Below, piece by piece: positions 2,414-24,625 of a DNA stretch of 64,000 nt. The stretch covers positions 13,811 to 77,810 of the forward strand of contig JAEUIT010000010.1 in the NCBI GenBank assembly GCA_016795035.1, written 5' to 3'. A model generated the notes under the pieces. It was given only the letters and a program-made list of their open reading frames with translations, did not search any database and had not been told where the DNA came from. Position 1 is the first letter of the stretch. The number at the start of each line of letters is the position of its first letter. A program made the translations under genes and the position numbers. The DNA is from Phycisphaerae bacterium (lineage in GTDB: Bacteria; Planctomycetota; Phycisphaerae; Phycisphaerales; SM1A02).

Positions 2414-2893
2414 GGCGGGGAGTGTGGCAGCGCGCCGGCCCGGCGGCGAGGGACGTGGGAGGAAACGCCGTCTCCAGAGACGCATGCGCGGGGCGAGACC
2501 GCGCGCTCCCCGAGGACGTCAGATCACGTCTGGTTCGCGACGTGTGAGGTTCGCTGCCATTTCCCTGGTGCGGTTCCCCCCTAACTTTGGAATGGTCGTA
2601 TGCTCCGGGCCAGCATCGCGTGAGAGGGACCGTTGCCGTTCACCGGCGTTTCCCGCAGGAACTCTGCGCCCGTCGCCTTCATGACGTGGCGCCGTTCCGC
2701 CTCTCGGGAATTGGTTCTCGAGATCCTCTCGGCGGCGTCGATCGGTCCGTACCTCTGACGGAGACGGGAACATACTCCGACCTGGTCGAACAGGTCGGTG
2801 ATGGCCGTTCGACCCGCGGTCACGAGTGACAGATGCAACGAGCCATCGGCGTTCGTCGGGCTCTGTGGACCTCCTCATGCCGGGAGCGGCTCG

Positions 2894-5800
2894 ATGACCT
2901 CCGCACGCCACCGCAGTCTTCTCTGGGCAATCGTCTTCTTCGCGGCCTACGCGCTCGCCGGATGGTTCGGCAACGGACTGCGCCTCATTCCCGGCGTCGC
3001 CATCACGTTTTGGCCGCCTGCCGGCGTATTCATGGCCACGCTGATCATGACGCGACGGCGGTCGTGGCCGCTATGGATTCTCGCGGGCTGCCTCTCGGAA
3101 CTTGCGCTGAACGCGGCGCTCTTTCACAATCCGCTCGTCCTCGCGATCGGCTACTTCGCGGGCAATGTGCTCACCGCCGTGCTCGGCGCGACGCTCATTC
3201 GATGGGTCTGTCCGCGACCGTTTCGACTCGACTCGCTGGAGCAGGCCGCGGCGCTCGTCTTCTTCGGCGCGGCGGCCGCACCGGTCGCGAGCGCCACGGT
3301 CATCGCCGCGATCGACGCCGGAGTCGGCAAACACACGTTCGTGCGCGCATGGTCCTACGTGTGGCTCGGCGACTGCACTGGGCTCCTGGTGTCTGGGCGC
3401 GGTGCCCACGCCATACCTCGCCGTCGTGCCGATCCTCTGGGCCTCGGCGCGCTTTCAGCTCATGGGAGCCGCCGCGTCGTTGGGCGTGCTTGCGGTGGCG
3501 AGTGCGTGGCTGACGGTCTCGGCCCTGAATAGGTTGGGCGCCGCGCCGGAATCCCTCGGGCCCCGCATCGTCGAACTCCAGGTCTTTCTTGGGATCTGTG
3601 CCGTCGCTGCGCTGATCGTGGCCACGCTCTCGGCGCAGCGCCACCACGTGACGGAACGGCTGCAGGAATTGAATGACACGCTGGAGCGGCGAATCCAAGA
3701 CCGCACGGCGAGTCTTCAGGAGAGTGAACGGCGATCGCTCGCCCTCGAGGAAGCCGCGCGCGAGGCGGCGGCGCAACTGAGTCAAACGCTCGACACGGCC
3801 GCCGTCGGGTTGGTGCGCGTCAATCGTGACTTCGTGCACGTGTCGGCAAACCCCGCGTACGCCGCGCTCGCGGGTCTCCCCGTCGGGGCGATCGTGGGGC
3901 GCCATATGGTGGACGTGATCGGCGCGAGCGCGTTTGCCGCCATTCGTCCCTTTCTCGACCGAGTGTTGGCCGGGGAGACCGTCGAGTACGAGACGTTGCT
4001 GCCTTTCGCGCACGCTCCCGCGGCGCATATCCATGTCGTCCACACGCCCTGGCGTGACACCCGCGGGCAGGTGACCGGGTGGGTCGGATCCGTCACCAAC
4101 ATCACGCAGCGCAAGTACGTGGAGGAGCGCCTCCGCGCAAGCCGAGAGCACCTGAGCGTCGCGATGCAGGCATCGCAATCGCTCAGCTTCGAGTGGGACA
4201 TTCCCAACGACCGCGTGCGCCATCTGCACAGCGCCGACGCGTCGCTGCCGATGACCGAAGTGGGAAGCTTCGACGACGCGTTGATGGCCGTACATCCGGA
4301 CGACCGCGCGATGGTTCGCGCCAAGGCGGAGGCGGCGCTCACCTCGACGGACGGCGAGTACGCCGCGGAATTCCGCGTCCTTCGGCCCGACGGTCAGGTC
4401 GCCTGGAAGAGCGAGAGCGGGCGTGTCGAGTTCGACGCAGAGGACCGGCCGCTACGGCTGATCGGCATTCGCCGCGACGTCACCGCCCAGAAGGCGGCCG
4501 AGGAGCAGCAGCGCTACAGCGAAGAGTTGCACCGCATCTCGTTCGACCACTCCCCGACCGGCATCGTGCACGTGAGTCTCGACGCGCGCTTCATCCGCGT
4601 GAATCAGGCCATGTGCGAGATCACGGGCTATGCCGCGGACGAACTGCGGGGGAAGTCGATCGCGGACCTCACGCATCCGGACGACGCGGCCCGTGATGCC
4701 GAGCTTCTCGATGCGTACGTGCGCGGAGACACGTCGTTCTACGAGAACGACAAGAGGTACGTGCGCAAGGACGGGAGCATTCGTTGGGTCTCGATCTCGG
4801 CTCGCATGGTGCGAGACGCCGCCGGCAACCCGCTTCACAGCGTGGGCAGCGTGCGCGACATCACCGAACGCGTGCGGGCACTTGGTCTCCTCCGCGAGAG
4901 CGAGCAGCGCTTCCGCGTGATGGCGGACGGACTGCCGCTGGCCGTGTGGGTTCATGACGCGAACGGCACGCAGGAGTTCGTGAACGGCACCTTCTGTCGG
5001 TTCTTCGGGCTCACGCCGGAGGACCTGCAGCGCGACCGATGGCAGACTCTCATCCATCCCGAGGACGAGGCCGAATACGTCGGGCGATTCCGAGAGTGCG
5101 TCCGCGAGCGGCGACCGTTCCACGCTCGCGCGCGGGTGCGGGTCGCGGACGGGTCGTGGCGCTGGGTCGAGTGCTGGGGCCAGCCGCGAATCGACGACGA
5201 CGGCACGTTCCTCGGAATGGTCGGCGCGACCGCGGACATCACGGAACAGCGGACGTCGGAGGAGGAACTTCGCGCGCACCGCGAGAACCTTGAGCTCCTG
5301 ATCGAGAAGCGGACCGCCGAACTCGAAGCGAGTCATCGCCGGCTTCGGCTCTCGGAGCGAATGGCAAGCTTGGGAACGCTGGCCGCGGGCCTCGGCCACG
5401 ACATGGGCAACCTGCTCATTCCCCTGGGCGTGCGGCTCGATTCGCTCGAGGGACACGACCTCAGCGACGCCGCGAAGGACGACGTGAGAGCCATTCGCAC
5501 GTCGGCGGAGTATCTCCAGAAGCTCGCCAATGGGCTTCGACTTCTCGCGCTCGATCCTGAACGATCACCGGTTGGCGAAGCCACCGAGCTCGCGTCGTGG
5601 TGGAGTGATGCGAAGGGGGTGCTGAAGAACGTGCTGCCGATCGGCGTCGCCCTCGACTCCGACTTCACCACCGGCGCGTGCACGATCGCGATGTCCAAGG
5701 CGGCGCTGACCCAGGTCATCTTCAACCTGGTCCAGAACGCGGGTGACGCAATGAAGGCGCAGCGATCGGGACACGTCCGCGTCCGCGCGCAGATCGAAGG

Positions 5801-6344
5801 GTCACGCGTGCGGATCGAGGTGTCGGACGACGGACCGGGAATGACGTCGGAGGTCCAGGAGCGCTGCATGGAGCCCTTCTTCTCGACGAAGCCCCGCGGC
5901 ATCTCGACTGGACTCGGGTTGGTGCTGGTCTATGGGCTCGTGCGTGAGGCGTCGGGAACGGTCGAACTTAGGTCGGCACTCGGAAAGGGAACCACGTTCG
6001 TCCTCGACCTGCCCGTCGCGTCGCCCGCGACGAAGGTGAAGGAGGAGGGGCGCGGCAAGAGTGCCGTCGTTGCGTTGCACGACGCGCGGCTTCGTTCGTT
6101 CGTCACTGGTGAACTGACCGCGCTCTCGTACGACGTGAAGGATTCGAGCGGTTTGGACGTCGCCGAGCTTTGCGTCGTCGACTGCGAGAACATCCTCCGA
6201 CGTGTGCCGAAGGGCGCGAAGGTCGTCTATCTGGGAAGTCACGTGCACGAGTCGAGTCTGCAGATTCGCTCGCTCGGCGGTCGTCCCCACGTGTCGGCCG
6301 TGCGGGCTGCGATCCGGGACCTGTGCGGAGAGAGCGACGCGTAG
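2894..6344 (+). CDS. MASE1 - 4x PAS - HisKA - HATPase sensor histidine kinase, interrupted by an apparent 1-nt frameshift near 3392 (possible pseudogene or sequencing error)
   Basis: The N-terminal MASE1-like membrane domain (frame of ORF 2798..3532, ATG 2894, ...SYVWLGDCTGLLV) continues seamlessly in the frame of ORF 3165..6344 (LGAVPTPYLAVVPILW...) if t3392 is skipped. Downstream are four PAS-like modules, an H-box (GLGHDMGNLLIPL) and N/G boxes (NLVQNAGDAM, DDGPGM, GLGLVLV). Confidence 0.8.
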
Positions 6345-6439
6345 CCGCGACGCCGCGACCTCGTTCCTCGACGGGTCCCCGAAGGAGAGCGCGCGACGAT
6401 GGAACGGGGGATGACGAAGGTGCGCCCCGCCGTGGGCGT

Positions 6440-7860
6440 TCGGTGTGGAGCCGACACATCCTTGGAGGGCGTGCGGAGACATCCTTGGCACCCCGAGGGA
6501 GGTTGGGGGGGGCGTTTTGCGCCTCGTTCGAGGGGCGTCAATGCCATGTGCGGCGCGCACTGGCCACACCACTGCGCGGTCCCAGTCCGGGCACATGGGT
6601 GACACTTTCTTCGGATGCTGTGGCCAGACCGCTGCGCGGAGGGTTACGGCCAAGGCGCACTGGCCACACCAGTGCGCTGGCCGATGCCTTCCGACGACGT
6701 GGTCAGACCACTGCGCATTAGCGCGCACTGGCCACACCAGTGCGCTCGCCCGACGACGTGGCCACACCACTGGACTCCGCGCACTGGCCACACCAGTGCG
6801 CGGTGCATCGGCGCGCACTGGCCACACCACTGCGCGGCCTCCGGTTCGGACCGGACACCTCCTTGGCAGGCGTGCGGAGACATCCTTGGCACCCCGATCG
6901 CGGTCGGGGGATCGTTTCGCGCCTCGTTCAAGGGGCGTCAATGCGATGGGAAGAACGTTCCGGGCGGCGCGCACTGGCCACACCACTGCGCCGTCCTTGG
7001 CAGGCGTGTGCGGCGCGCACTGGCCACACCACTGCGCGGTCCCAGTCCGGGCGGCGCGCACTGGCCACCCGGCGCGCACTGGCCACACCCGTGCGCTTGC
7101 CCCTTCCGATGACGTGGCCAGACCACTGCGCCCCGCCAGTGCGCGGCACCTGGTCGCGAGCGCGCACTGGCCACACGACTGCGCGGTCCCAGTCCGGGCA
7201 CATGGGTGACACTTTCTCCGGGTCCTATGGGCAGACCGCCGTGGGCGCACTGGCCACACCAGTGCGCGGGCCCCGGGTGTCGTGGCCAGACCACTGGATC
7301 CGACGATGTGGCCACACCACTGCGCCCCGCCGTCCGCGCGCATGGCTGACACGTCTTCCGGGCGACGTGGCCACACCATTGCGCGCCGCTCGGGTCTCGT
7401 GGCCAGACCACTGCGCGGGGGGATGACTGCCAACGCGCACTGGCCACACCAGTGCGCGACGCCAACTACTCGTCGGCGGACGGGCGTAATGCGCACTAGC
7501 CACACCAGTGCGCTGGCCGACGCCTTCCGACGACGTGGCCAGACCACTGCAGACTAGCGCGCACTGGCCACACCATTGCGCTAGCCCGACGACGTGGCCA
7601 CACCACTGCGCCCCGCCGTCCGGGCGCATGGCTGACACGTCTTCCGGGCGACGTAGCCAGACCACTGCGCGCCGCAGTCCAGGCACATGGGTGACACTCT
7701 CTCTGAGGACACGCACTCGTAACTGTGCGCATTGGCCACACCAGTGCGCGGGTCCCGGGTGTCGTGGCCAGACCACTGCGCGGGGGATGACGGCCAACGC
7801 GCACTGGCCACACCAGTGCGCGACGCCAACTACTCGTCGGCGGACGGGCGTACGTCAGAG
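6440..7860. repeat. Non-coding hyper-repetitive island: about 28 same-strand copies of core TGGCCA[C/G]ACCA[C/G]TGCGC. About 15 copies extend to the 23-nt hairpin GCGCACTGG-CCACA-CCAGTGCGC.
   Basis: Read directly. The 23-mer or near-variants start near 6555, 6655, 6723, 6779, 6813, 6969, 7015, 7073, 7162, 7245, 7435, 7491, 7559, 7727 and 7799. A second variant, GACGTGGCCAGACCACTGCGC, is interleaved. Longer blocks are duplicated (6452-6548 vs 6853-6945; 7417-7488 vs 7782-7852). ORFs here occur in all frames and translate to low-complexity WPHHCA / VWPVR strings. Confidence 0.9.
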
Positions 7861-8227
7861 CCCGTCGACGCGTCGGCACCAGTGCACGAGTTGAGTCCCT
7901 CGCGGGAGCGGGCGGGGGGGGCGCGAAGCCTAGGTCGGCGTTCCGGTTACCAGCGTCGGCGCGGGGGCTCGGAGCTGTGGCCGAGGCGAGATGACCGCGC
8001 AGGCGATCGTGGCGGGAATCGGTGCTTGTGATCGCCGCAGGGGGCGGCGAGGGCACCGCTCACGCGTCTTTTCGGCGTTCTATTCCTTCGAGGGTCGCGG
8101 CACCGCCATGACGGCGCTTGTCGCGTCGACCGTGCGGCGCCTCGGCTCGACGCCCTCGGCGACGGTTCCGATCCCGCACGTGCGCAGGTGCGCACGTCGT
8201 GCGGCGGTCGGCGACACTGCGGCGACT

Positions 8228-8956
8228 ATGGCACGTCCGACGCCTCCACGGATGTCTGAGACACCGCCTCCAGACCCCACTCCTCGTTCGTCGGGCGGCG
8301 CCTCGCGCGTGAGCGGGGCGCCCTTGGACGACGCCGTCGACGCGGCCATCGCGTCGATGTCGATCCATCCGAACGCCACGCGCTTCGATCCGGCAAGCGT
8401 CACGCGTCCCGACGAGCGGCTTCTCCGCTACTACCAGATCGTCTCGGCGCTCACGCTCGTCTTCTTCCCGATCACCTTCATCCCGCTCTACCTTCGCTAT
8501 CGCACGCTGCGATACCGCTTCGACGACGAGGGCGTCGGCATGAGCGTCGGTCTCCTCTTCAAGCAGGAGACCTACCTGACGTACCGGCGCATCCAGGACA
8601 TTCACGTCACCCGCGGACTCCTGCAACGATGGCTCGGGCTCGCGACCGTCTCGGTGCAGACCGCGGCGGGCTCGTCCTCGGCGGAAATGACGATCGAAGG
8701 CGTCGCCGATCCGGACGGACTCCGCGACTGGCTTTACACCCGCATGCGCGGCGCGCACGATCCGCACCCGGCGGCGCGCTCGGATGGAAGCGGCGAGGAA
8801 TCGGCGCCGACGTCGGGGGCCGACGACGACGGCGCCGACGACGACATGCTCACGCTTCTTCGCGAGATTCGCGACGAGGTTCGTGCCCTGCGCGCCGCGG
8901 CCGCAACCGAGCGGCGGTCGCGCGAGCCTTTGTCGGACGAAGGAGGCGCGGGATGA
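8228..8956 (+). CDS. bacterial PH domain (bPH_2 / YdbS-like) membrane protein
   Basis: Two TM helices (YYQIVSALTLVFFPITFIPLYL) followed by RYRFDDEGVGMSVGLLFKQETYLTYRRIQDIHVTRGLLQRWLGLATVSVQTAG. Start is uncertain (ATG 8228 chosen; alternatives 8108 and 8252). Confidence 0.7.
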   Translation: MARPTPPRMSETPPPDPTPRSSGGASRVSGAPLDDAVDAAIASMSIHPNATRFDPASVTRPDERLLRYYQIVSALTLVFFPITFIPLYLRYRTLRYRFDDEGVGMSVGLLFKQETYLTYRRIQDIHVTRGLLQRWLGLATVSVQTAAGSSSAEMTIEGVADPDGLRDWLYTRMRGAHDPHPAARSDGSGEESAPTSGADDDGADDDMLTLLREIRDEVRALRAAAATERRSREPLSDEGGAG

Positions 8957-9750
8957 ACGAGCGAGCCTCGATCAGCTCCGCCGTCGCGAAGAAGACCTAC
9001 CGAGGCGTGTGGGCGGTGCTTCGATCATGGTTCCGCGTGCCCGAGGAGCCGCCGACCTTGCCCTCGCGCGGCTCCACCCGCACTACGCGGCCGGCTCCGG
9101 GATTTCTGCGGTATCTCACGTTCCAATTCTGGGTGCTCCTTGTCATCTTCGACGTCGCGCTCATCGGCGCGTGGCTCGTCGTCCTGATCGTCAATCCGAT
9201 GTTCGGCGCGATCATCGCGATCCCGGTGTGGATCGTCGCCATCGTGCCCGACATCGTGGCGTACGTCGCGATCCACCTTCGCTACGACTCCACCTGGTAT
9301 GTGATCAGCGATCGAAGCATGCGCCTCCGGCGCGGCATCTGGGTCGTCGAGGAAGTCACGATCACGTTCGAGAACGTGCAGAACGTCTCCGTCCACCAGG
9401 GACCGGTGCAGCGCTACTTCGGCATCGCCAATGTCCTCGTGCAGACGGCGGGCGGCGGCGTCACCGTCGGACCCCACGGACCGGTCGCAAGCGGCGGACA
9501 CATGGGACTCCTCGAGGGCGTCGACGACGCCGAGGCACTCCGCGACCTCATCATGGATCGCGTGCGGTCGTCGCGGTCGGCGGGGCTCGGCGACGAGCGC
9601 GAGCGCGCCGGCGACGCCATAGTTCGTCCGCGCGCGAACGGCGCCGCGACTCGTCGTGCGGCTGCGCACGGGGCCGCGATGCAGGCGATCCTGCGCGAGA
9701 TTCGCGATGACCTGCGCGCCACGAACCTGGCGCGTTCGACCACGACGTGA
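8953..9750 (+). CDS. bacterial PH domain (bPH_2 / YdbT-like) membrane protein
   Basis: ATG 8953 overlaps the upstream stop (ATGA). Has TM helices and the motif YDSTWYVISDRSMRLRRGIWVVEEVTITFENVQNVSVHQGPVQRYFGIANVLVQTAGG. Confidence 0.75.
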   Translation: MNERASISSAVAKKTYRGVWAVLRSWFRVPEEPPTLPSRGSTRTTRPAPGFLRYLTFQFWVLLVIFDVALIGAWLVVLIVNPMFGAIIAIPVWIVAIVPDIVAYVAIHLRYDSTWYVISDRSMRLRRGIWVVEEVTITFENVQNVSVHQGPVQRYFGIANVLVQTAGGGVTVGPHGPVASGGHMGLLEGVDDAEALRDLIMDRVRSSRSAGLGDERERAGDAIVRPRANGAATRRAAAHGAAMQAILREIRDDLRATNLARSTTT

Positions 9751-9813
9751 CGAGCGCGACGTCGCGGCCCGGCGCGAAGGCCGACAGGCCGGCGACGTCG
9801 CGCATGGGCACGG

Positions 9814-10503
9814 CTAGCCCCGCGGTCGTCCCTCCGTCGGCGTAGGGACCGACGTGCGGATCACCCCTTGGCGCAGGTACGCGCGGTACGACGGCACGCG
9901 CCACCGGTCCGTCGCGCCGGCGATCTCGACGGTGGAGCGGACGATCGCCGCGCGCGGGATCACGTCGGCGACGAGGACGCCCATCGTCAGCGCCGTGCCC
10001 GTCGCGCATTCCCGCACGAGATCGGCCCACTCCGGACGTTCGGCCGCGAGGAGGTCGAGCGGTTCGTCGTCCTCGTCCTCGTCGTCCTGCTCGAAGAGGT
10101 CGTCGTCGAGCCCGCGGTCGAATCCCACGCCGTCGTCGAGACGGATGGTCGGCAGGTCGGCCCACTGGCACGCCGTGACGGTCGCGGAGAATGCGGCGGC
10201 CCAGACCGCGCTCGACGCTCCGTCGTCGATGGCCTGCGGCGCGCGATCCACGAACTCGAGCATCAGCTCCCGCACCGCGAGCGCGCACTCGAAGCGCACC
10301 GTCGTCGGACCGCCGAAGTGCTCGAGATGGTGGATGAGCGCGCGATTCGCGATGGTCGCGAGGCGACCGCAGAGGCCCGGCCGCATCTCCTCGCGCCACG
10401 AGGTGTCGGCCAACGCGGCTTCCATCGTCTCTTGGGTCAGCAGTGCGGGAAACCTCGGGCGCAGGCGCGTGCGACCGCCATCCGGTGTGACCGGCTTCAC
10501 CAT
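9814..10503 (-). CDS. hypothetical protein with acidic linker
   Basis: ATG at 10503 (MVKPVTPDGG...). Protein-like composition and an acidic tract (DDDLFEQDDEDEDDEPLDLL). No family recognised. Confidence 0.55.
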   Translation of the reverse strand: MVKPVTPDGGRTRLRPRFPALLTQETMEAALADTSWREEMRPGLCGRLATIANRALIHHLEHFGGPTTVRFECALAVRELMLEFVDRAPQAIDDGASSAVWAAAFSATVTACQWADLPTIRLDDGVGFDRGLDDDLFEQDDEDEDDEPLDLLAAERPEWADLVRECATGTALTMGVLVADVIPRAAIVRSTVEIAGATDRWRVPSYRAYLRQGVIRTSVPTPTEGRPRG

Positions 10504-10701
10504 GACAGAACCCTCCGAAGTCGTTGTCGCAAGGCCGCGCGGCATCCAGGCGCGCGGTCTCGCGTGCGTCACGACGGTGGCGGTGCGGCGCTCCGTCGAT
10601 CAGCGGGCGGGAGAGTACCGCCGAAAACGCGATGGTCGAAAAGTCCTGCGCTTTTTCGGCGCGCCGGAATTTTGCGTGGCGACGAGTCGCCGCTCGAGCG
10701 C

Positions 10702-11343
10702 TTACGTCGCGCCGATCTCACGAAGGACGTCGCCGTCGATGCCGAGGAACTCGCGCATGTGCTGGTCGTACACCTCTTGGTCGCGGTCGCGGGAGAAGTC
10801 GAGGCGCAGCTCGTTGATGACCTTAGTGCCCTGGCCGATCCAGTCCTTCCAGGTCTCCGCCGAGATGTTGTCGAAAATCCACTGACCGACCGCACCGCGG
10901 AAGGGCGGCTTCTCGAGCTTCGTGCCCGGGCGCCCGGTCCGACGGCACACGAACGCGCCGCTCGCGCGCAGGCGCTCGGCGGCCTCGTCGGCCTCGCGCG
11001 AGAGGCGCGGCGGCTCGCGACCGATCGAGCGGAGGAGGTCCGCGATCGCCGTCTGCGGCATGCGATCGCCCTTCGCGCCTGCAACGGAGAAACCCTTCTC
11101 GAGGAAGGCCACGGCCTTGTCCGCCCATCCCGCCTCGATCATCGCCTTGCCGCCGAGCTGATACGCCTTGCTCATGTCGGGATTGATCTCGACGCAGCGC
11201 TCGAGGCTCTTCGCCGCCTCCGCCGCGCGGCCTGCCTGGAGATACGCGTTCCCGAGGCTGAAGTGCGCCATGTCGTTGTCGGGATCGGCCGACGCCATCT
11301 TCTCGAACTGCTGGATGCGGGCGTTGAGGTCGGGAGTGGTCAT
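10702..11343 (-). CDS. TPR repeat - YggX (Fe(2+)-trafficking / oxidative damage protection) fusion protein
   Basis: ATG 11343 (MTTPDLNARIQQFEKM...). N-terminal TPR-like repeats. The C-terminal about 75 aa align to E. coli YggX (FVCRRTG...GAVGQWIFDNISAETWKDWIGQGTKVINELRLDF...MREFLG). Confidence 0.8.
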   Translation of the reverse strand: MTTPDLNARIQQFEKMASADPDNDMAHFSLGNAYLQAGRAAEAAKSLERCVEINPDMSKAYQLGGKAMIEAGWADKAVAFLEKGFSVAGAKGDRMPQTAIADLLRSIGREPPRLSREADEAAERLRASGAFVCRRTGRPGTKLEKPPFRGAVGQWIFDNISAETWKDWIGQGTKVINELRLDFSRDRDQEVYDQHMREFLGIDGDVLREIGAT

Positions 11344-11494
11344 GGGAGGGGAATGGTAAGAGAAGGAGAAGGGAGGAACGGCCCACGACGGAAACGCGGG
11401 GCACGCCATTCGCGATCCTCGCTCCTCGAGCCTCGAGCCTCGATGCACGCACCTTCCCATCCTCGGGGCTTTCCCTCTACGCTTCGCCTTCCCG

Positions 11495-12418
11495 ATGTCC
11501 ACCCTCCCGACCACCCTGTGCGGGGTTCGACTCACGAATCCGCTCATCGCGGCCGCAGGAACGTGCGGCTACACCGGCGAACTGGGCGACGCGCTGCCGC
11601 TCGCGAAACTCGGCGCGGTGACGTCGAAGTCGATCACGCTCGAACCGCGCGACGGCAACGCGCCATGGCGCATGGTGGACATTCCCGGGGGCATGCTCAA
11701 CGCGATCGGCCTCGCGAACGTCGGCGTCGACCGCTTCCTCGCGGAGAAGTTGCCGAGCGCCGCGGGCATGGGATGTCCGCTCATCGGCTCGATCGCGGGC
11801 CACTCCGTCGACGACTATCTCTCCGTTGCAGCCAAGTTCGACCGCGAGCCGTCGATCCCGATCGTCGAACTCAACGTTTCCTGTCCGAACACCGCCGACG
11901 GCCTCCAGTTCGGCGAGCATCCGCAGGCGCTGCGGCAACTCCTCGCGGCGGTGCGCCCCGCACTTCCGTCGACGAAGATGCTCGTGAAGCTCTCGCCGAA
12001 CGTCGGCGACATCGTGGCGATGGCGAAGGCCGCGATCGACGGCGGCGCCGACGGCCTCACGCTCATCAACACGGTGAGCGCGATGGCGATCGACGTCGAG
12101 CGTCGCGAGCCGAGGCTCTCGCGCGGCACGGGCGGCCTGAGCGGCACGGCGATCCACGCGATCGCGGTGCGCATGGTGCATCAGGTCTATCGCGGCGTCG
12201 CAAGGGACGCGCGCATCCCGCTCGTCGGGCTCGGCGGCGTCATGCAGTGGCAGGATGCGGCGGAGCTCGTCCTCGCGGGAGCGACGTGCGTCGGCCTGGG
12301 CACCGCGCTCTTCGTGGACCCGCGCACGCCGCTCCGCGTTGCGAAGGGACTCGACGCGTGGGTGCGGCGCCAAGGTGCGACGTCGATCGGCGAGCTGGTC
12401 GGCGCGCTCCGGACGTGA
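11495..12418 (+). CDS. pyrD: dihydroorotate dehydrogenase, class 1 (catalytic Cys)
   Basis: LTNPLIAAAGTCGY, GAVTSKSIT, NAIGLANVG, IVELNVSCPNT, GLSGTAIHAIAVRMV and GLGGV are hallmark class-1 DHOD motifs. Confidence 0.92.
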   Translation: MSTLPTTLCGVRLTNPLIAAAGTCGYTGELGDALPLAKLGAVTSKSITLEPRDGNAPWRMVDIPGGMLNAIGLANVGVDRFLAEKLPSAAGMGCPLIGSIAGHSVDDYLSVAAKFDREPSIPIVELNVSCPNTADGLQFGEHPQALRQLLAAVRPALPSTKMLVKLSPNVGDIVAMAKAAIDGGADGLTLINTVSAMAIDVERREPRLSRGTGGLSGTAIHAIAVRMVHQVYRGVARDARIPLVGLGGVMQWQDAAELVLAGATCVGLGTALFVDPRTPLRVAKGLDAWVRRQGATSIGELVGALRT

Positions 12419-12444
12419 CCGCGCACACGCTACGCTGGCGGACG

Positions 12445-12864
12445 ATGACGAAACGCGAACGTGAACGCTTCGACACGATCTTCGAGGACGTGCTCGAATC
12501 GCTGCCCGAGTCGATCCACGCGCTCCTCGACGACGCGCCGGTCGTCCTCGAAGACCGCGCGCCGCGCAAGGTGCTCGAGGAGCTCGGCATCGAGCCCGAG
12601 GACGACGACCTCTGCGGCCTGCACACCGGCGTCCCGCTGACGCAGCGATCCGTGAACGACCACGGTGTCCTCCCCGACGTGATTCACCTCTTCCGCGAGG
12701 GGATCGTGGCGCACGCGGGCGGGTGGGAGGAAGGCGAGGACGAGGAGGGGCCGTACGGCGGCGAGGAGCGGATTCGCGAGGAGATCCGCATCACGCTGCT
12801 GCATGAGATCGGCCACCACTTCGGCCTCGACGAGGACGACCTCGAGCGGCTCGGATACGCCTGA
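12445..12864 (+). CDS. metallopeptidase family protein (zincin-like, HExxH)
   Basis: ATG 12445. 139 aa ending ...IRITLLHEIGHHFGLDEDDLERLGYA, the small acidic zincin-like family. Confidence 0.8.
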   Translation: MTKRERERFDTIFEDVLESLPESIHALLDDAPVVLEDRAPRKVLEELGIEPEDDDLCGLHTGVPLTQRSVNDHGVLPDVIHLFREGIVAHAGGWEEGEDEEGPYGGEERIREEIRITLLHEIGHHFGLDEDDLERLGYA

Positions 12865-12871
12865 CGGCTCG

Positions 12872-12932
12872 CTCCGCGTTGCAGCCCGTTCCGCGTTGCG
12901 GCAGTTTCCGCGTCGTCGCCTGCAACGTGGAG
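12872..12932. repeat. Inverted pair of the over-represented word (CTCCGCGTTGCAG ... CTGCAACGTGGAG) between convergent genes; terminator-like hairpin
   Basis: The 13-nt arms are complementary with 1 mismatch and separated by about 35 nt. They fill the gap between stop codons at 12864 (+) and 12935 (-). Confidence 0.6.
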
Positions 12933-12934
12933 TG

Positions 12935-14746
12935 TCACGCAGATACGAGCGTGCGCTCCGCAAGCCCGAGGAAGGTCGCGTCGCCCGGCGCGCTCAAGGC
13001 GCGCGACGCAGGCACGTTCAGGGTGAACTGCGACCCCGAGACCCAGCCGACGATGCGTGCGAAGCGCGTGCGATCGCGGCCTTCGCAGCAGATGACCTCG
13101 CCGTCCTCGATGCGGGCGATTGCGTCGGTCACGGGCTCGCCGCCGCCCACGTCGGCCGCGCCGAGCGACGCGCGGGCGTGGCGACCGGACCAGATCGCGG
13201 TGCGGCCGCGTCCGAGGCGATCCTCGGCCCAGCGCGCCGCGAGCTGGTCGACGTCGTGGTTGCCTGTCCATGCGATCACCCAACCGACGTCGTCGGGCGC
13301 CGCGATGTCGTCCATCCAACGCGCATCGGTCGCATCGCCGGCGATCGCGTCGAGCCCTTGCGCCTGCGCGGCATGCACCTGCGCGATGCTCTGGTCGACG
13401 ATGCGCACGTGCACGCCGTGCGAGGAGAGGAGTTTCGCGAAGGCAACGCTGAGCGGATGTCCTCCGATGAGCATGACCGCCGAGCCTTCGCCGGCGCGGA
13501 CGCGAAGCGCCCAGCCGATGACGGGCGAGATGATCGTTCCCGCGAGCACGGTGCCGACGATCGTCACGAACATGACGACGTCGAGGCGATCGACATCGGC
13601 GAGGAGGAGGCTCGTCGTCGAGGCCGAATCGGTCCCGTCGCCGGCGAGTGCGGCGCGAAGCTCCGCGGCGGCGACCGCGGTGACGGAGAGCGCCACGATG
13701 CCGCGCGGCGCGAAGGTCGCCGCGAACGCGCGTTCTCCGGGCGAAAGCCGCGATCGAAACGTGGAGAGCGTCACCGCGACGGGGCGGATCGCGAAGAGGA
13801 GGACGCCCACGAACGCCGCTTCGCGCCAGCCGACCACGGAGAGTCGCCGTATGTCGAAGCGCGACGCCAGCAGCACGAATAGGGTGCCCACGAGCATCAC
13901 CGCGAGCAATTCCTTGAACGCCCGCAGCTCGGTCGCGCCGAGCACCTTCGCCCGCGCCATGATGACGCCGCAGATCGTGACCGCGGCCAGCCCGCCTTCG
14001 GGGGCGATCGCTTCGCCGAGTCCGACGCACGTCATGCACACGCCGACGGCGACGAGATTCACGAGGCGCGGATCGGGGCGCGCGGCGTGGCCGAGCCACT
14101 GGAGGAGACGCCGCCCGACGACGCCCATGACGATGCCGAGGCACGCGCCGCCGATGAGCGGCTTCAGGAAGAGGAAGGCGCCGGCGCCGGCGATGCCGAG
14201 CGCGGGGCCGCCGTCCAGATAGCGGCGCACGATCTCGAGCGTCGTCACCGTGGCGACGACGCCGAGGGGATCGATCAGCACCGCCTCCGCGCCGAGGACC
14301 GCATGCAGGCGCGGCGCGACGCGCATCGAGCGGAGAATCGGCTGGACGACCGTGGGGCCCGTCACGATGAGCGCGGCGCCGAGGATGATCGCGATCGGCC
14401 AAGTGAACCCGAGGAGGTAGTGCGCGGCGACGCTCGCGCCGATCCAGGTCAGGAGCGCGCCGACCGTGAGGAGTCCCCAGACCGCGCGCGGCGCGCGGCC
14501 AAGCTCCTCGCGGTTGAGGTGGAGCGCGCCCTCGAAGATGAGGAGGCCGATCGCGACGGTGATGAAGCCGGTGAGCGAATTGCCGAGCGACCCCGCGTCG
14601 ACGACGCCGAGTCCGGAGGTCCCGAGGCCCACGCCGACGACGAGGAGCGGCAGGAGGGACGGGACCCGGAGGCGCCGGCACGCGACGCTTACGAGGGCGC
14701 TGACTCCGAGCGAGAGCGCAAGGGATTGGGCGGCGGAATCGGACAC
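12935..14746 (-). CDS. cation:proton (Na+/H+) antiporter, CPA1 family, with C-terminal TrkA-N-like domain
   Basis: About 12 TM segments (LPLLVVGVGLG, LIFEGALHL, IILGAALIVTGPTVV, LIDPLGV...) followed by a soluble domain (VMLIGGHPLSVAFAKLL). GTG start at 14746 chosen. The ORF extends to 14908, but that extension is Arg-rich and not protein-like. Confidence 0.8.
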   Translation of the reverse strand: MSDSAAQSLALSLGVSALVSVACRRLRVPSLLPLLVVGVGLGTSGLGVVDAGSLGNSLTGFITVAIGLLIFEGALHLNREELGRAPRAVWGLLTVGALLTWIGASVAAHYLLGFTWPIAIILGAALIVTGPTVVQPILRSMRVAPRLHAVLGAEAVLIDPLGVVATVTTLEIVRRYLDGGPALGIAGAGAFLFLKPLIGGACLGIVMGVVGRRLLQWLGHAARPDPRLVNLVAVGVCMTCVGLGEAIAPEGGLAAVTICGVIMARAKVLGATELRAFKELLAVMLVGTLFVLLASRFDIRRLSVVGWREAAFVGVLLFAIRPVAVTLSTFRSRLSPGERAFAATFAPRGIVALSVTAVAAAELRAALAGDGTDSASTTSLLLADVDRLDVVMFVTIVGTVLAGTIISPVIGWALRVRAGEGSAVMLIGGHPLSVAFAKLLSSHGVHVRIVDQSIAQVHAAQAQGLDAIAGDATDARWMDDIAAPDDVGWVIAWTGNHDVDQLAARWAEDRLGRGRTAIWSGRHARASLGAADVGGGEPVTDAIARIEDGEVICCEGRDRTRFARIVGWVSGSQFTLNVPASRALSAPGDATFLGLAERTLVSA

Positions 14747-14991
14747 GGGGACGGGGTGTGGACGGGTCGCGGGGACGCGAGTCGAAATCGGGGCCGCAGC
14801 GTAGCGACGCGCGCGGATTGCGCGCGATCGGCCACAACCTGTCGTGGGTTTCTGCGCGTCGACCACAAGTCGCGTCGGCGAGCGCGAAACGGCTCGGCGC
14901 TTTTTCATCGGCCGCGCGCGCGCGAGCCGAAAACGACGGGCCGGGCAACCTTGCCTAGAGGCCGACGCACGACGAATTGAGGCCTTCGTCC

Positions 14992-15198
14992 ATGCCGAGC
15001 AAGAACGAACTGATCGACCGCATCCGCCAGATCAACCAGAGCGCCGACGGGCGTTGGCTCGAGTCCTTCGACCAGCAGGCGCTCTTCGACTACTTCGAGC
15101 ACCTGCAGATCCTCGCCGAACCGCGGGGCCGCTCGAGCGTCTGGCGTCGTCGCGGCGACACGACTGCGATCGTGGCCCTGAGCAACCGCTCGGAGTGA
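14992..15198 (+). CDS. small hypothetical protein
   Basis: ATG 14992 (MPSKNELIDRIRQINQSADGRWLESFDQQALFDYFEHLQIL...). Balanced, protein-like composition in an otherwise unassigned gap. Confidence 0.5.
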   Translation: MPSKNELIDRIRQINQSADGRWLESFDQQALFDYFEHLQILAEPRGRSSVWRRRGDTTAIVALSNRSE

Positions 15199-15259
15199 GC
15201 GTCCGCCCGATGCGAACGGGCGGTCGCGCGCGGCGCGGAGTTAGGCCGCGCCCTGCGAC

Positions 15260-16297
15260 TCAGTCCTCGACGACGCGCATCGCGAAGAGATCCTGGACAT
15301 CGATGAGTCCGAGCGGTCGATCGTCGTGGTCGACGACGGGAATCTCGTCGAGCCGGCACTCGCGGATGAGCTGCACCGCGTCGCGCACGAGCGAATCGAC
15401 GCCGAGCCGCTTCGGCTGCTTCGTCATGACCGCGCGGATCGGCTGATCGAGAAACTCCGCGTTGCCGGAGTTCACGAGGCGGCGAAGGTCGCCGTCGGTG
15501 AAGATGCCCGAGAGGCGACCGGACGGATCGACGAGGACGACGGCGCCCGCGCGTCGGCCCTCGCCGGCGGTCTTGAGCGCGTCGCGCACGAGCGTCGTGT
15601 CGGCGATGACCGGGAGGTTCGATCCGACGCGGAACCGGATGATCTCGGTGACCGGCTTGAGGTTCGCGCCGAGCATGCCGCCCGGATGGCGGCGGTGGAA
15701 GTCGTCGGCGGTGAAGTTGCGTCGGCGGCTGACGGCGAGCGCGAGGACGTCGCCCGCCGCGAGCATCGCGGTGGAGGACGCGGTCGGCGCGAGGCCGTTC
15801 GGGCACGCTTCGACGATCGGACCGAGGTCGAGGTGGACGTCACAGAGGCGTGCGAGGCTCGACGCGGGCTTGCTCGACATGCCGATCCGATTCACGCCAT
15901 CGGCCTTGAGGATCGCCGCGAGGGTCACGACCTCGTCGGTCTCGCCGCTGAAACTCAGGAGGAGGACGACGTCTCCGGTGCGGATTCGGCCGAGATCGCC
16001 GTGGACCGCCTCCGCGGGGTGGACGACGTGCGACGGCTGGCCGAGGCTCGCCAAGGTCGCCGAGATCTTCGCCCCGACGAGACCCGACTTGCCCATGCCG
16101 CTCACGACCACGTGGCCGGGGCATGCAACGAGGAGATCGATGGCGGCCTGCCACGCGGTGGCTTCGGGCGACGACGGAGCGGCCAGCCGCTCGGCGAGCC
16201 GGCGGATGGCGTCGGCTTCGGCGGTCAGGGCGTTAACGAGGAAGGCGCGTTCGGCCGTGGCCGGGCCGTTCGTGGCGGGGAGGACGGAGGCGGACAT
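15260..16297 (-). CDS. kdsD: arabinose-5-phosphate isomerase (KpsF/GutQ/KdsD family; SIS + 2 CBS domains)
   Basis: ATG 16297. SIS motif VVVSGMGKSGLVGAKISATLASLG and LLLSFSGET, then tandem CBS domains ending ...IPVVDHDDRPLGLIDVQDL. Confidence 0.9.
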   Translation of the reverse strand: MSASVLPATNGPATAERAFLVNALTAEADAIRRLAERLAAPSSPEATAWQAAIDLLVACPGHVVVSGMGKSGLVGAKISATLASLGQPSHVVHPAEAVHGDLGRIRTGDVVLLLSFSGETDEVVTLAAILKADGVNRIGMSSKPASSLARLCDVHLDLGPIVEACPNGLAPTASSTAMLAAGDVLALAVSRRRNFTADDFHRRHPGGMLGANLKPVTEIIRFRVGSNLPVIADTTLVRDALKTAGEGRRAGAVVLVDPSGRLSGIFTDGDLRRLVNSGNAEFLDQPIRAVMTKQPKRLGVDSLVRDAVQLIRECRLDEIPVVDHDDRPLGLIDVQDLFAMRVVED

Positions 16298-16430
16298 GCG
16301 GGAAGAGTCTACCGTGCGGCGGGAAACGGCAGATTTCTGGCGCCGCAATGCCGGACCATACGCCGTCGTTGGCGGTGCCCCAGACGCTCCTGCGGGAGTC
16401 CCGCTGGCGAACCCCACTTGGAGATTCCGC

Positions 16431-17963
16431 ATGACCACGCGCTCGCTCGCGTCGCTCGCCGGGGCCGCACTGACGATCTCCCTCACGGTCTCCACGTTGC
16501 AGGCGATCGGCGCGCCCGCGACGCCCGCGCCGCCCGCGCTGGGCGTGCGCTATCTCGTCGTCTGGTATACGAAAGACGCAGGCCCGCAGTACCGACCGGC
16601 CGCGCACAAACTCATCAAGATGCATGGCGCGTCGGAGTTCAAGTGGGACGGCGACATCGAGGCGCTCAAGGACGAGCTTCTTGAGCAGAAGCCTGCGCAT
16701 CTCGCGCTCGTCCTTCCGCCCGACCTGATCGATGCGCAGCTCGTTCGCGACCTCGCGCCGACGCTCGCGCGCTTCGACGACGATCCCTTCCTCGACTGCC
16801 GACTCGGATTCATCACCGGCGGCGACGGGAAGATCGCGGCGGACTTCGTCGACACCATCGCGAAGGCGAGCGGCGGCGACATTCCCGACCGCACCGTGAG
16901 CGCCCGCATCGAGCTGTCGGAGAAGAGCGTGCGCGCCGGTCCGGCCGCGCTCGAGTCGGCGATCGACCGGGCGCTCTCCTCGGTCGACCTCGAGATCGGC
17001 GCGAAGGACCCGGCCTGGCAACCGTTCATCGACAAGCAGCGGCACGAGCTCATGGACGCGGGCATCGTCGAGATTGTCGACACCGGCGTCTCCGCGTTGC
17101 GGGACTTCACGCCGGCGATTCTCTTCGGCACGAACTCGCTGTATCCGGCGATCATCTTCGACGGCTCCTCGCGCAACGCGGCCACCGAACCCGTCGACCC
17201 CTCGACGGTCGACGAGAAGGCGACGATCGCGACGATGCCGATCGTGCTCGAGGCCATACGGCTCGGCGCCGTCGCGTACGTCGCGTCCGTCGGGGCCGCG
17301 AGCCCGAATCGCACGAGGCTCGAGCAGTGGCTCATTCTCGAAGGCGATCGCTCGATCGGCGACGCGCTTCGGATCGCGCACGACGACCTCGTCATCGGCG
17401 CGCTCGACGACGAGGTCATGCGCGACTATCTCGTCGAGGGCTTCCGCAACGGGGAGATGCCGCTCGAATCGGTCGAGCTCTACGACGACGTCGCATTGCG
17501 CGTTCTCTTCGGCGATCCGGCGTTCGTCCCGTTCCGCGACCGGCGCCCGTCGAACCATGCGGTCGACTTCGACGTCTCGAAGGACTCGCTCGCCGTCACG
17601 AGCGAGTGGACGCGCCTCGACCTCGATCCCTGGGTGTGGGACCGATGGCGCGCGGACTCCGCGGTCGGCCGCGAGTTGGGGCGGGTGTACGAGCGGATTG
17701 AATTGCCGTTCGGGCTGCGGCTCGATCACGATCAGCTGCCGATCGTCACCGCCGTGAAGGTCGAGGCGACGGGGGGGCGACGACGCCAGGACGTTCCCGC
17801 GACCGGCGTCGCGTATCGCGAACTCGATCCCGACGGCCGCTCGGTGCTGCACGTCTTGGTCCGCGGGCCGCGGGCCCTGATGCGGCCTCCGGGACCGGTC
17901 GATCCCGAGGCGACGCTCCGGAGTTACGCGGAATTGGTGCTCGTCCCGATCCCCGCGCGGTGA
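16431..17963 (+). CDS. secreted hypothetical protein
   Basis: ATG 16431. Signal peptide (MTTRSLASLAGAALTISLTVSTLQAIGAPA) followed by a 510-aa protein-like sequence. No family recognised. Confidence 0.7.
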   Translation: MTTRSLASLAGAALTISLTVSTLQAIGAPATPAPPALGVRYLVVWYTKDAGPQYRPAAHKLIKMHGASEFKWDGDIEALKDELLEQKPAHLALVLPPDLIDAQLVRDLAPTLARFDDDPFLDCRLGFITGGDGKIAADFVDTIAKASGGDIPDRTVSARIELSEKSVRAGPAALESAIDRALSSVDLEIGAKDPAWQPFIDKQRHELMDAGIVEIVDTGVSALRDFTPAILFGTNSLYPAIIFDGSSRNAATEPVDPSTVDEKATIATMPIVLEAIRLGAVAYVASVGAASPNRTRLEQWLILEGDRSIGDALRIAHDDLVIGALDDEVMRDYLVEGFRNGEMPLESVELYDDVALRVLFGDPAFVPFRDRRPSNHAVDFDVSKDSLAVTSEWTRLDLDPWVWDRWRADSAVGRELGRVYERIELPFGLRLDHDQLPIVTAVKVEATGGRRRQDVPATGVAYRELDPDGRSVLHVLVRGPRALMRPPGPVDPEATLRSYAELVLVPIPAR

Positions 17964-18017
17964 CTCCGTCCGTCGGGCGCCGGAGCGCCGGGGAGGCCGC
18001 GCCGATACGCTACCGGC

Positions 18018-18836
18018 ATGTCCTCTCCGGACGACTACCAAGTCCATCTCTCGAGCTTTCAAGGGCCGCTCGACCTACTCCTCTACCTGATCCGTCGGGC
18101 CGAGGTGGCGATCGAGGAGATCCCGATCCACGAGATCACCGAGCAGTACCTCTCGTACCTCGAGCAGCTCGGGACCGACGACCTCATCGACATCGACGTT
18201 GCAGGCGAGTTCCTCGTGATGGCCGCGACGCTCGTCGAGATCAAGTCGCGCACGCTCGCGCCGAAGCCGGAAGGGGAGGACGGGCAGCCCGCCGCCGAGC
18301 CGAAGGAAGCGGTCGATCCGCGGCAGGAATTGGTCGCGCAGCTTCTTGCGTACCAGCGCTTCCGCAACGCCGCCGACGAGTTGGAGCGGCTTCGCGCCGA
18401 GTACTCCGCGAAGTGGGTGGCGCGGGCGCACGGCAGCGAAGTGCCCGAACGCTCCGACGACGCGGAGATGGACGTCGACCTCGAGGACGCGCACATCCTC
18501 GACCTCTTCGAGACCTACGAACGGATCATCGGATCGATCGATCTCTCGCGCCTGGGTGACCACCGCGTCGAGTACGACGACACGCCGATCACGCTCCACC
18601 AGACCGACTTGCTCGACCGGCTGCAACGCTCGGTGACGAAGAAGCTGTCCCTGCGCGACGCCTTCGACGGCCGCACGCGCGGCGAGATGATCGGGCTCTT
18701 CCTGGCGACGCTCGAACTCGCGCGGCAGCGGAAGATCCTGGTGAAGCAGGACGATGTCCTCGGCGACATCCAGATCGAGCTCAATCCCGAGGACGACGGC
18801 GTGATGGCGTTCGAGAGTTCCGAGGCGAAGAGCTGA
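18018..18836 (+). CDS. scpA: segregation and condensation protein A
   Basis: FQGPLDLLLYLIRRAEVAIEEIPIHEITEQYL...AGEFLVMAATLVEIKSRTL is the typical ScpA N-terminus, and the length matches. Confidence 0.9.
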   Translation: MSSPDDYQVHLSSFQGPLDLLLYLIRRAEVAIEEIPIHEITEQYLSYLEQLGTDDLIDIDVAGEFLVMAATLVEIKSRTLAPKPEGEDGQPAAEPKEAVDPRQELVAQLLAYQRFRNAADELERLRAEYSAKWVARAHGSEVPERSDDAEMDVDLEDAHILDLFETYERIIGSIDLSRLGDHRVEYDDTPITLHQTDLLDRLQRSVTKKLSLRDAFDGRTRGEMIGLFLATLELARQRKILVKQDDVLGDIQIELNPEDDGVMAFESSEAKS

Positions 18837-18904
18837 GAGCGTGGTGGGGTGCGGTCTGGCGGGAGGACGTGGTGCGCGCGGGACGCGGCACGCGGGGGTC
18901 TGGT

Positions 18905-19676: not shown

Positions 19677-19743
19677 ATACGGAGAAAGGCCCGAAAGGGC
19701 GAGCGCGGCGTCAGGGGACGGGCTCGCCCCCGCGACTCGGTTC

Positions 19744-24159: not shown

Positions 24160-24625
24160 CTTCTGGCTGCAACGGGGAGAGGAACCGCCGATGAACGCAG
24201 AGGAATTCGGATGAAGAAGCGAGGTTCGTGGTAGCCGTGCGTGCGCGGAGGCCGAGGCGGCTCAGTGCTCCGGCCTGAGAGTTCGCGCGGCAACGCCGTG
24301 TCGGCCTTCCGCTCCTATCTGTGTTCATCCGTGTTCATCCGTGGTTCCTTCTTCTTCCTGCAACAGAGAGAGGGAACCACCGATGAACACAGATGAACAC
24401 GGATGAAGAGTACAGGCAGTAGCCGCCGTGCGTGCGCGGAGCTCATCCGAGTCGGGCGCCGACGCCAACGCGGCTGAGCGCTCGGGCCTGCGAGTTCTCG
24501 CGGCAACGCCGTGTCGGCCTTCCGCTCCTATCTGTGTTCATCTGTGTTCATCCGTGGTTCCTTCTCCTTACTGCAACAGAGAAGGGAAACCACCGATGAA
24601 CACAGATGAACACGGATCAAGAGTA
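24160..24625. repeat. Second tandem array (2 units plus a truncated third, about 195-215 bp) with the same decamer-hairpin delimiters but different internal sequence
   Basis: Hairpins at 24321-24400 and 24534-24613 (GTGTTCATCCGTGTTCATCCGTGGTTCC...CTGCAACAGAGA...GGAACCACCGATGAACACAGATGAACAC). The left edge at 24167 is CTGCAACGGGGAGAGGAACC, as at 18911. Confidence 0.85.

Follow-up and report, generated by a model that had tools for sequence, protein, structure and literature searches.

A hairpin array upstream of a bPH_2 operon in a Phycisphaerae genus: a candidate locally expanding minisatellite

What is the 1.4-kb island that separates a histidine kinase gene from a bPH_2 operon in a Phycisphaerae bacterium, and how did it become packed with copies of one short hairpin? 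The island (6440-7860) lies in a 64-kb stretch of DNA with a G+C content of 69%, hereafter the window, which was taken from an NCBI metagenome-assembled genome (protein MBL9147353.1). To our knowledge, the non-coding repeats of Planctomycetota are almost unstudied. An earlier note, made from the letters of the window alone, offered three roles for the island: an iteron- or centromere-like protein-binding array, a source of structured RNAs, or a recombination-prone minisatellite. We favour, with somewhat better than even confidence, a lineage-specific, locally expanding hairpin minisatellite. That a fast-evolving minisatellite is the most likely answer follows from two observations, namely that a sister species carries three copies of the hairpin at the same site and that their arrangement differs between strains.

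Architecture of the hairpin array

Repeat units were counted with the core pattern TGGCCA[C/G]ACCA[C/G]TGCGC. At up to two mismatches the core has 26 matches in the window, against 0.10 expected by chance, and at up to three mismatches it has 27, against 0.89 expected. All 27 are on the + strand, starting between 6561 and 7805, and the rest of the window holds no copy at the same tolerance. Counting in three partial or degenerate units (7056-7069, 7136-7144 and 7228-7244) brings the total to about 30. The array as a whole (6555-7821, + strand) is composed of 27 head-to-tail units of 23 nt, 15 of A-type and 12 of B-type, together with the three partials and recurring linkers. Its geometry is that of direct repeats in a single orientation, co-directional with both flanking genes. 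The start-to-start distance is irregular (26-156 nt, with gaps of 3-133 nt) and does not follow multiples of 3; Tandem Repeats Finder returns only local periods of 18, 29-30, 46 and 56.

The A-type units have the form GCGCAC-TGG-CCACA-CCA-GTGCGC, with GCGCAC or GCGCAT as the 5' arm. Six of them are the exact 23-mer GCGCACTGGCCACACCAGTGCGC, which forms a 9-bp stem with a 5-nt loop (-16.4 kcal/mol); these lie at 6655-6677, 6723-6745, 6779-6801, 7245-7267, 7435-7457 and 7799-7821, the last closing the array. These six stems are perfect, one further stem contains a G.U pair (7727-7749, where C6>T keeps the pairing), and eight have one or two mismatches. The mismatched units include 7074-7096, with one stem mismatch (CCCGTGCGC), 7491-7513, with G8>A, and a subset of six that we call A'. 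In the A' units position 18 is C or T rather than G, so that stem pair 6 is lost, and an A-type 5' arm is joined to a B-type 3' arm. These units are found at 6555-6577 (a GCGCAC arm with a CCACTGCGC arm and a C.C mismatch at pair 6), 6813-6835, 6969-6991, 7015-7037, 7162-7184 (degenerate, with two stem mismatches) and 7559-7581 (T at position 18).

In the B-type units the 5' arm is CGACG-like, the loop reads CCAGA or CCACA, and the hairpin is weaker than in A. Stem pairs 4 and 5 are mismatched, and position 18 is always C (once T), so that pair 6 is G-C, the reverse of the A-type C-G. They occupy 6615-6637 (loop CCAGA), 6694-6716, 6753-6775 (3' tail degenerate, CTGGAC), 7109-7131, 7277-7299 (tail degenerate), 7303-7325 (loop CCACA), 7362-7384 (G.T at pair 6), 7394-7416, 7530-7552 (tail degenerate), 7589-7611, 7648-7670 (G8>A) and 7759-7781 (8/9 pairs with G.U counted). 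Pairing is retained through G.U in several B units and in one A unit. The three partials are a 5' arm with half a loop of an A unit, set within an 18-nt tandem duplication (7056-7069), an orphan 3' arm CCAGTGCGC (7136-7144) and a degenerate B-like core TGGGCAGACCGCCGTGG (7228-7244); all units and partials are on the + strand. Positions 7-17 and 19-23 are near-invariant across the two classes, and the 5' arm differs. The bases on either side of the A units are variable (gc, ag, cc, gg, ac, at, gt), and neither an unpaired GTAG or CGTC tag nor a CCA tail was found at the units, the CGACG of B units being part of the arm.

This inventory bears out most of what the earlier note had described. Its count of about 28 copies is close to the 27 core matches and the total of about 30, its common orientation is found in 27/27 units, and the six positions that it gave for the exact 23-mer are correct. 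The interleaved second variant corresponds to the 12 CGACG-type units, and the irregular spacing with repeated intervening segments to start-to-start distances of 26-156 nt and linkers that are recurring modules. It had also described about 15 copies with a 9-bp stem and a 5-nt loop; there are indeed 15 A-type units, and the perfect stem is confined to six of them.

The orthologous site in a sister species

The JGI contig Ga0558126_00764 (L093) of a sister species was identified through homologues of the proteins that flank the array. Nucleotide identity is about 85% over window positions 8097-18958 and 1862-2446, and the gene order is the same (PNPOx, bPH_2, bPH_2, TPR/Iron_traffic, PyrD and onward). 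The 5.65-kb segment that holds the kinase gene and the array (2446-8097) is missing from L093, which has 300 bp instead (L093 9554-9853), a divergent intergenic region between PNPOx (-) and bPH_2 (+). Within it lie three perfectly palindromic copies of GCGCACGGGACAGACCAGTGCGC in tandem, at intervals of 28 and 27 bp. PNPOx is about 150 nt away from them and bPH_2 about 230 nt, and a degenerate fourth copy is found nearer bPH_2 (L093 9804). The units of the two species share the GCGCAC/GTGCGC stem base and CCA, and the CAGA loop of the sister unit is that of the window B units; the top of the stem and the loop differ (TGGCCACA vs GGGACAGA). The sister array is a regular 27/28-bp tandem, while that of the window, also head-to-tail, is irregular and mosaic. 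To the right of the last unit, the first ~40 nt look weakly alignable between species (identities counted by eye), and this likeness lends some support to the orthology of the two arrays. Copy number at the orthologous site is 27 in the window vs 3 in the sister species, and no hairpin copy lies beyond that site in ~22 kb of the sister genome.

Four further contigs (L105-L108) carry the same PNPOx protein as the sister species. L105, from a separate sample, spans the site with a 3-copy allele identical to that of L093. L106 has two full copies among bare GCGCAC fragments. In L107, B-like fragments are interleaved with one GCGCACGGGACAGGCCAGTGCGC and with two GCGCACTGGACAGACCAGTGCGC units, the stems of the latter being perfect; L108 stops short of the repeats and is uninformative. 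The PNPOx-side flanks (~150 nt) of L104-L107 look near-identical by eye. The sister-species samples therefore contain at least three arrangements of the repeats. More distant Phycisphaerae (L094, L097-L101), whose bPH_2 is 65-78% identical, have no array in an intergenic region of ~30-110 bp, and the upstream neighbour of their bPH_2 genes is not that of the window. As far as these alignments reach, the repeat is specific to one genus, anchored at one locus and fast-evolving in copy number and arrangement. Of the three roles proposed earlier, the minisatellite gains from the difference between 3 and 27 copies and from the presence of at least three arrangements.

Two minor observations concern the edges of the locus. 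A possible decayed 3' half-unit (CACCAGTGCAC; CGTCGGCACCAGTGCAC) at 7871-7887, 50 nt past the array, is not significant against background; in the sister species the degenerate fourth copy holds a comparable position, nearest bPH_2. To the left of the kinase gene no core remnant was found at up to 5 substitutions. The hairpin locus also coincides with a site of gene gain or loss, the indel of kinase and array.

Linker modules and block duplications

The linkers that join the units are about eight recurring modules, and neither these modules nor the duplicated blocks occur elsewhere in the window. Module F is present once ahead of the first unit (6435-6548, 114 nt), where it holds a terminator-like hairpin, CCCCGA..TTGGGG, followed by TTTT, and again within the array (6836-6948) in a copy that is 83-88% identical. 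Duplications of blocks within the array are 55-129 nt long, with 91-99% identity. A 129-nt block of four units (6652-6780) recurs at 7488-7616 (91%), and a 71-nt block made of a linker, an A unit and the right-flank module R (7418-7488) recurs at the right edge of the array (7782-7852, 99%). The second copy of a 90-nt block (7300-7389), which includes linker L7 (CCGTCCG.GCGCATGGCTGACACGTCTTCC), is at 7586-7675 (94%). An 80-nt block (6553-6632) that includes linker L1 (CAGTCCGGGCACATGGGTGACACTTTCT), of which the array has 5 copies, recurs at 7160-7239 (93%). All of these modules and blocks are on the + strand. Between paralogous blocks, mismatches affect 13/227 core positions and 14/198 linker positions (p=0.69), and there is no sign of stronger purifying selection on cores than on linkers since the blocks were duplicated.

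Assembly and coding potential

We compared the window with Logan k=31 contigs from SRR7119499, SRR7119503, SRR7119504 and SRR7119517. These contigs are 100% identical to the flanks of the array, end at 6576/6592 and resume at 7823. The window itself contains the exact shared stretches 6547-6592 = 7007-7052 and 7429-7488 = 7793-7852, and the Logan breaks coincide with their ends, so that the read graph branches where the window sequence predicts. Because the longest exact internal repeat is 60 nt, the array is resolvable with k>=61 or 150-nt reads. The possibility of an assembly artefact, raised in the earlier note, has against it the breaks at the predicted de Bruijn branches, the order of the blocks being that of the window assembly alone.

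The three codon phases are equal in G+C from about 6360 to 8280, and the flanking genes are strongly GC3-biased. None of the seven open reading frames (ORFs) that overlap the array region has a Pfam hit. A repeat-protein gene was therefore rejected, on the lack of a codon-phase signal, a spacing that is not a multiple of 3 and the missing Pfam hits. The island is non-coding, as the earlier note had it, and the boundaries it drew also hold: the kinase gene stops at 6344, and the next gene starts at 8228 with an N-terminus conserved in the sister species.

A model for local expansion

We propose that an ancestral 23-nt stem-loop upstream of the bPH_2 (YdbS/T-like) operon in one Phycisphaerae genus would have been multiplied in place and reshuffled by replication slippage, template switching and unequal recombination. 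The hairpin itself and the short core that the units share (TGGCCA.ACCA.TGCGC) may have been the seeds of such events. A misaligned exchange between two cores would duplicate or delete the block between them and leave a hybrid unit at the junction, and would in this way give rise to the linker mosaic of about eight modules, to the duplicated blocks of several units, and to the A' units and orphan arms. The A' hybrids, the orphan arms, the 18-nt partial tandem and the block duplications are expected marks of these processes and, on the sequence evidence, point to them. The equal decay of cores and linkers suggests that the array may evolve close to neutrality.

Several observations weigh against this model. 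All units have one orientation, co-directional with the flanking genes, which would suit a role at the RNA level too. The check for dispersed copies covers the 64-kb window and ~22 kb of the sister genome, 86 kb in all, and is compatible with a family of fewer than ~100 copies. The test of core against linker divergence rests on 27 substitutions. Identical cores are attached to mutually unrelated linkers, and pure block duplication is unable to join one core to unrelated linkers; the first multi-linker array therefore needs another origin, for instance a capture of sequence from the flanks, or a core that was actively copied or spread by gene conversion.

A further point concerns the stem. When the distinct unit variants of the two species are taken together, pairing holds in 78.7% of stem cells, and pair 6/18 is the only one that covaries (GC 11, CG 6, GU 1, UG 1, unpaired 4). 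The C/G association of this pair between classes, C-G in A and G-C in B, is significant (Fisher p=0.001), and its covariation score is reached in 2/500 shuffles. This covariation hints at some selection on hairpin formation.

Any effect of the array on the cell is probably secondary. It is possible, by analogy with mRNA stabilisers of the repetitive extragenic palindromic (REP) type, that a transcript reading through from the kinase gene carries up to 27 stable stem-loops in its 3' region. The array possibly also alters spacing or DNA structure upstream of the bPH_2 promoter and the conserved 130-nt leader.

Alternative explanations

Unlikely, and among the rivals the one that survives best, is a REP-like mobile family of stem-loops piled up at a hot spot, of the type of REP and bacterial interspersed mosaic elements (BIMEs), of dRS3 and Neisseria intergenic mosaic elements (NIMEs), or of IS200/IS605-palindrome-associated transposable elements (PATEs). 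Its hairpins would be copied as single strands by a Y1/HUH transposase, like the REP-associated tyrosine transposases (RAYTs), or by another transposase. Identical cores on unrelated linkers suggest a core copied on its own, and a single orientation fits strand-specific transposition of single-stranded DNA. The site could be a hot spot for insertions, since it has acquired a 3.5-kb kinase gene that the sister species lacks. The CGTC-3/4 REP families likewise have a stem of 9 bp and a loop of 5 nt, as described in an excerpt of PMC3733652. The unpaired GTAG/CGTC tag and the CCA tail that the same excerpt gives as REP features are, however, lacking from our units. The units run head-to-tail, whereas REPs are mainly head-to-head or tail-to-tail dimers in excerpts of PMC2817692 and PMC3733652. 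Pfam scans of the 30 largest GC3-supported ORFs of the window revealed no transposase or RAYT, nor any rep, par or cas gene.

The distribution of the sequence argues in the same direction. There are no copies beyond the array in the 64 kb or in the ~22 kb of the sister genome, in keeping with the earlier description of a local array rather than a dispersed REP family. Neither 185,579 species-representative genomes nor the JGI metagenomes contain the exact 23-mer; the 17-mer core has only 15 single matches in IMG/VR, which is the chance level; and the array has no similarity to any of 72,556 plasmids and 50,697 phages. A looser search for TGGCCASACCA occurring three times returned 7 genome and 65 metagenome loci, which we rejected as chance, the exact 17-mer core being found in 0/72. 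Their spacings are mostly regular, with periods of about 18-54, and five that were read directly are coding-type 'GQT' or non-coding tandem repeats sharing only the 11-mer. Several ~37-38% G+C contigs among L029, L050, L053, L066 and L074 carry AT-rich 41-bp satellites (…TGGCCAGACCACTATTCAGTTTAAATGCCAGATATCTGC…) in at least 12 copies; apart from the common 11-mer, these are unrelated to the hairpin array. The earlier note knew of no described element with this sequence, and it has gone unmatched in every collection searched.

Somewhat less likely still is a binding array on double-stranded DNA, in which three operator-like sites for a sequence-specific protein in the ancestral PNPOx/bPH_2 promoter would have expanded into a titration or insulator array. 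The invariant positions 7-17 and 19-23, next to a differing 5' arm, resemble an asymmetric protein site, and the three perfect palindromes of the sister species sit in a divergent promoter region. These features have to be set against cores that decay as fast as linkers between duplicated blocks, a copy number and arrangement that vary freely between strains, a stem top and loop that change between species, and bPH_2 upstream regions of other Phycisphaerae that have no array. The adjacent genes include no candidate regulator, rep or par gene, and plasmid or phage homology was not found in the searches above.

The iteron- or centromere-like role proposed in the earlier note is not supported. 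The one-orientation direct-repeat geometry is that of plasmid iterons and partition centromeres (sopC, parC, parS arrays); the cores are no better conserved than the linkers. Neither rep nor par genes were found among the annotated window ORFs, nor any similarity to plasmids or phages, and the context is one of chromosomal housekeeping genes (PyrD, PheT, AroA, ScpA, KpsF-like). A cluster of DnaA boxes was also dropped: CTGGCCACA fits the high-GC DnaA box at only 7/9 positions (by eye), the B units and sister units are without CACA, and there is no dnaA or dnaN nearby.

We consider it improbable that the array is the product or substrate of an undescribed local copy-and-paste process that multiplies the 17-23-nt hairpin core independently of its surroundings. 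The agent could be a hairpin-specific nuclease, a recombinase or a primed-synthesis activity. It would have to act with a strand polarity, given the uniform direction of the units and the degenerate copy at the end nearer bPH_2. Under such a process the strain-variable array might, from its place upstream of the YdbS/T-like operon, act as a contingency switch or as a sponge for protein or RNA. This reading draws on the unrelated linkers on identical cores, the one covarying pair, and the near-identical strains that differ at the locus. Active copying or specific binding of the core, if real, would indicate a so far undescribed hairpin-processing or hairpin-binding activity in Planctomycetota.

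A structured non-coding RNA on the + strand, serving as a multi-hairpin protein sponge or as a stabiliser or attenuator in a 3' or 5' untranslated region (UTR), is quite improbable. The units point in the direction of both flanking genes, the + strand of the region folds more stably than shuffled sequences do (z=-9.6), the G.U pairs of several B units and one A unit work only in + strand RNA, and one stem pair covaries. The - strand also folds better than its shuffles (z=-5.4), and on both strands this follows from the palindromes. The B units lose stem pairs 4 and 5, and the copy number is hypervariable, with no conserved larger fold. A scan of the array for sigma-70 promoters and intrinsic terminators found none, and the sole terminator-like site is at 8064. 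Rfam 15 gave no gathering-score match in the window, and in E-value mode over 6300-8300 it gave only noise (E>3); tRNA and tmRNA were likewise sought in the array and not found. The sister repeats lie upstream of the 130-nt promoter/5' UTR block, in a divergent promoter region, and are therefore probably outside the bPH_2 transcript.

Least credible, and very improbable indeed, is an artefact or a misread feature, whether a chimeric or collapsed assembly, a degenerate array of clustered regularly interspaced short palindromic repeats (CRISPR) or a decayed repeat-protein gene: the window does come from a metagenome, k=31 assemblies break at the array, and the repeats are partly palindromic like many CRISPR repeats, but the breaks fall exactly at the predicted graph branches with no exact repeat >60 nt, two independent sister-species assemblies span the homologous 3-copy array identically, the 26-156-nt spacing is irregular, the 'spacers' are repeated within the array, the annotated window ORFs include no cas genes, and the coding signals sought are missing.

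Comparison with known repeat systems

The island is best classed as an intergenic stem-loop repeat cluster, or minisatellite, with no sequence relative in any collection searched. In architecture, BIMEs and the NIMEs of Neisseria are its closest counterparts, both being strain-variable intergenic mosaics in which palindromes of more than one class alternate with linkers that recur. Also close are STAR elements and variable-number tandem repeats (VNTRs) of mycobacterial interspersed repetitive units (MIRUs). Like BIMEs, the array is intergenic and built from short imperfect palindromes of two classes (Y/Z there, A/B here), in a mosaic with a few recurring linker motifs and a strain-variable copy number; mRNA-stabilising and protein-binding roles are possible for both. 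Its 23-nt imperfect palindrome that forms a stem-loop is itself a REP-type feature. According to excerpts of PMC2817692 and PMC3733652, the REPs in BIMEs of Enterobacteria and Pseudomonas alternate in orientation, number >100 dispersed copies per genome, carry the GTAG tag and are linked to RAYTs. The units of the window, by contrast, are head-to-tail, untagged and restricted to one locus in the 86 kb inspected, with no RAYT in the window.

In NIMEs, 20-bp dRS3 palindromes flank RS units. Those dRS3 repeats have hundreds of dispersed copies, a CGTC tag, a stem that starts with AT and a CCA tail, and they are a target of IS110-like or phage integration. The array resembles NIMEs in that a short stem-loop repeat forms a large local cluster, the longer segments in between are themselves repeat families, and the locus is associated with rearrangement and insertion hot spots. 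It differs in that none of these dRS3 features of tag, stem, tail, dispersal or integration is seen, and the sequence is unrelated. Clustering as such has a precedent here, dRS3 being the CGTC-1 REP family, which occurs in clusters (excerpt of PMC3733652).

The array shares with STAR elements short conserved direct repeats in one orientation and recurring segments between them, and with MIRU-VNTR loci intergenic tandem units whose copy number varies between strains at orthologous sites. The STAR cores of Staphylococcus aureus are 14-bp, non-palindromic, GC-rich repeats at many loci, and MIRUs are regular tandem units of 40-100 bp without hairpin cores, often overlapping small ORFs. The window array, in contrast to both, is irregular in spacing, hairpin-based and single-locus. 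Same-orientation, partly palindromic 23-nt repeats with sequence in between, and a degenerate copy at one end (L093), recall CRISPR, but the period is not fixed, the gaps range from 3 to 133 nt and the 'spacers' recur. A CRISPR or TIGR-like array was rejected on its irregular spacing, recurring linkers and lack of cas or Nop-domain genes among the window ORFs annotated.

Should the locally expanding minisatellite be correct, the locus would provide a discriminating VNTR-like strain marker for an uncultured Phycisphaerae lineage. It would also represent a natural case of an intergenic hairpin that grew from 3 to ~30 copies, with mosaic linkers, between sister species. It would account for the breaks of short-read assemblies at this position, and would caution against annotating the 581-aa and 254-aa ORFs that cross the array.

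Neighbouring genes and other repeats

The bPH_2 operon downstream of the array comprises a gene for a YdbS-like membrane protein (8228-8956, +) and a YdbT-like gene (8953-9750, +). The 130-nt stretch ahead of it (8097-8227, +), with the array upstream, lies inside the ~85%-identical sister alignment and is the probable promoter or 5' UTR of bPH_2. Just upstream of the bPH_2 start, at 8175-8197, is a short GC-rich tandem or palindromic run (CGCACGTG, 2.9 copies; CCGCACGTGCGCAGGTGCGCACGTCGTGCGG) that reuses the stem-base hexamers GTGCGC/GCGCAC of the hairpin; the sister species has a shorter version only.

Upstream of the array, the MASE1-PAS histidine kinase gene (2894-6344, +; MASE1-PAS-HATPase) is split into two overlapping frames, 2894-3532 and 3165/3480-6344. 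The split is also present in the 100%-identical Logan contigs, so that the gene is possibly a frameshifted pseudogene. Identity to the nearest full-length relatives reaches only about 39%. Beyond the kinase gene lies the PNPOx-family gene (1847-2413, -), which in the sister species adjoins the hairpin repeats directly, in divergent orientation.

A second repeat family, unrelated to the hairpins, occurs at 18926-19680 and 24181-24603, and also at L093 20664-20734. The element is a palindrome of ~95 bp whose arms, ...GTGTTCATC.GTGGTTCC / GGAACCAC.GATGAACAC..., each contain tandem 10-mers. Three tandem units of ~239 bp lie just downstream of scpA, with two and a half more ~5 kb further on, and the arm motif has 12 matches against 0.09 expected. 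This family is kept in the sister species and, unlike the hairpin array, is found at at least two loci in the window.

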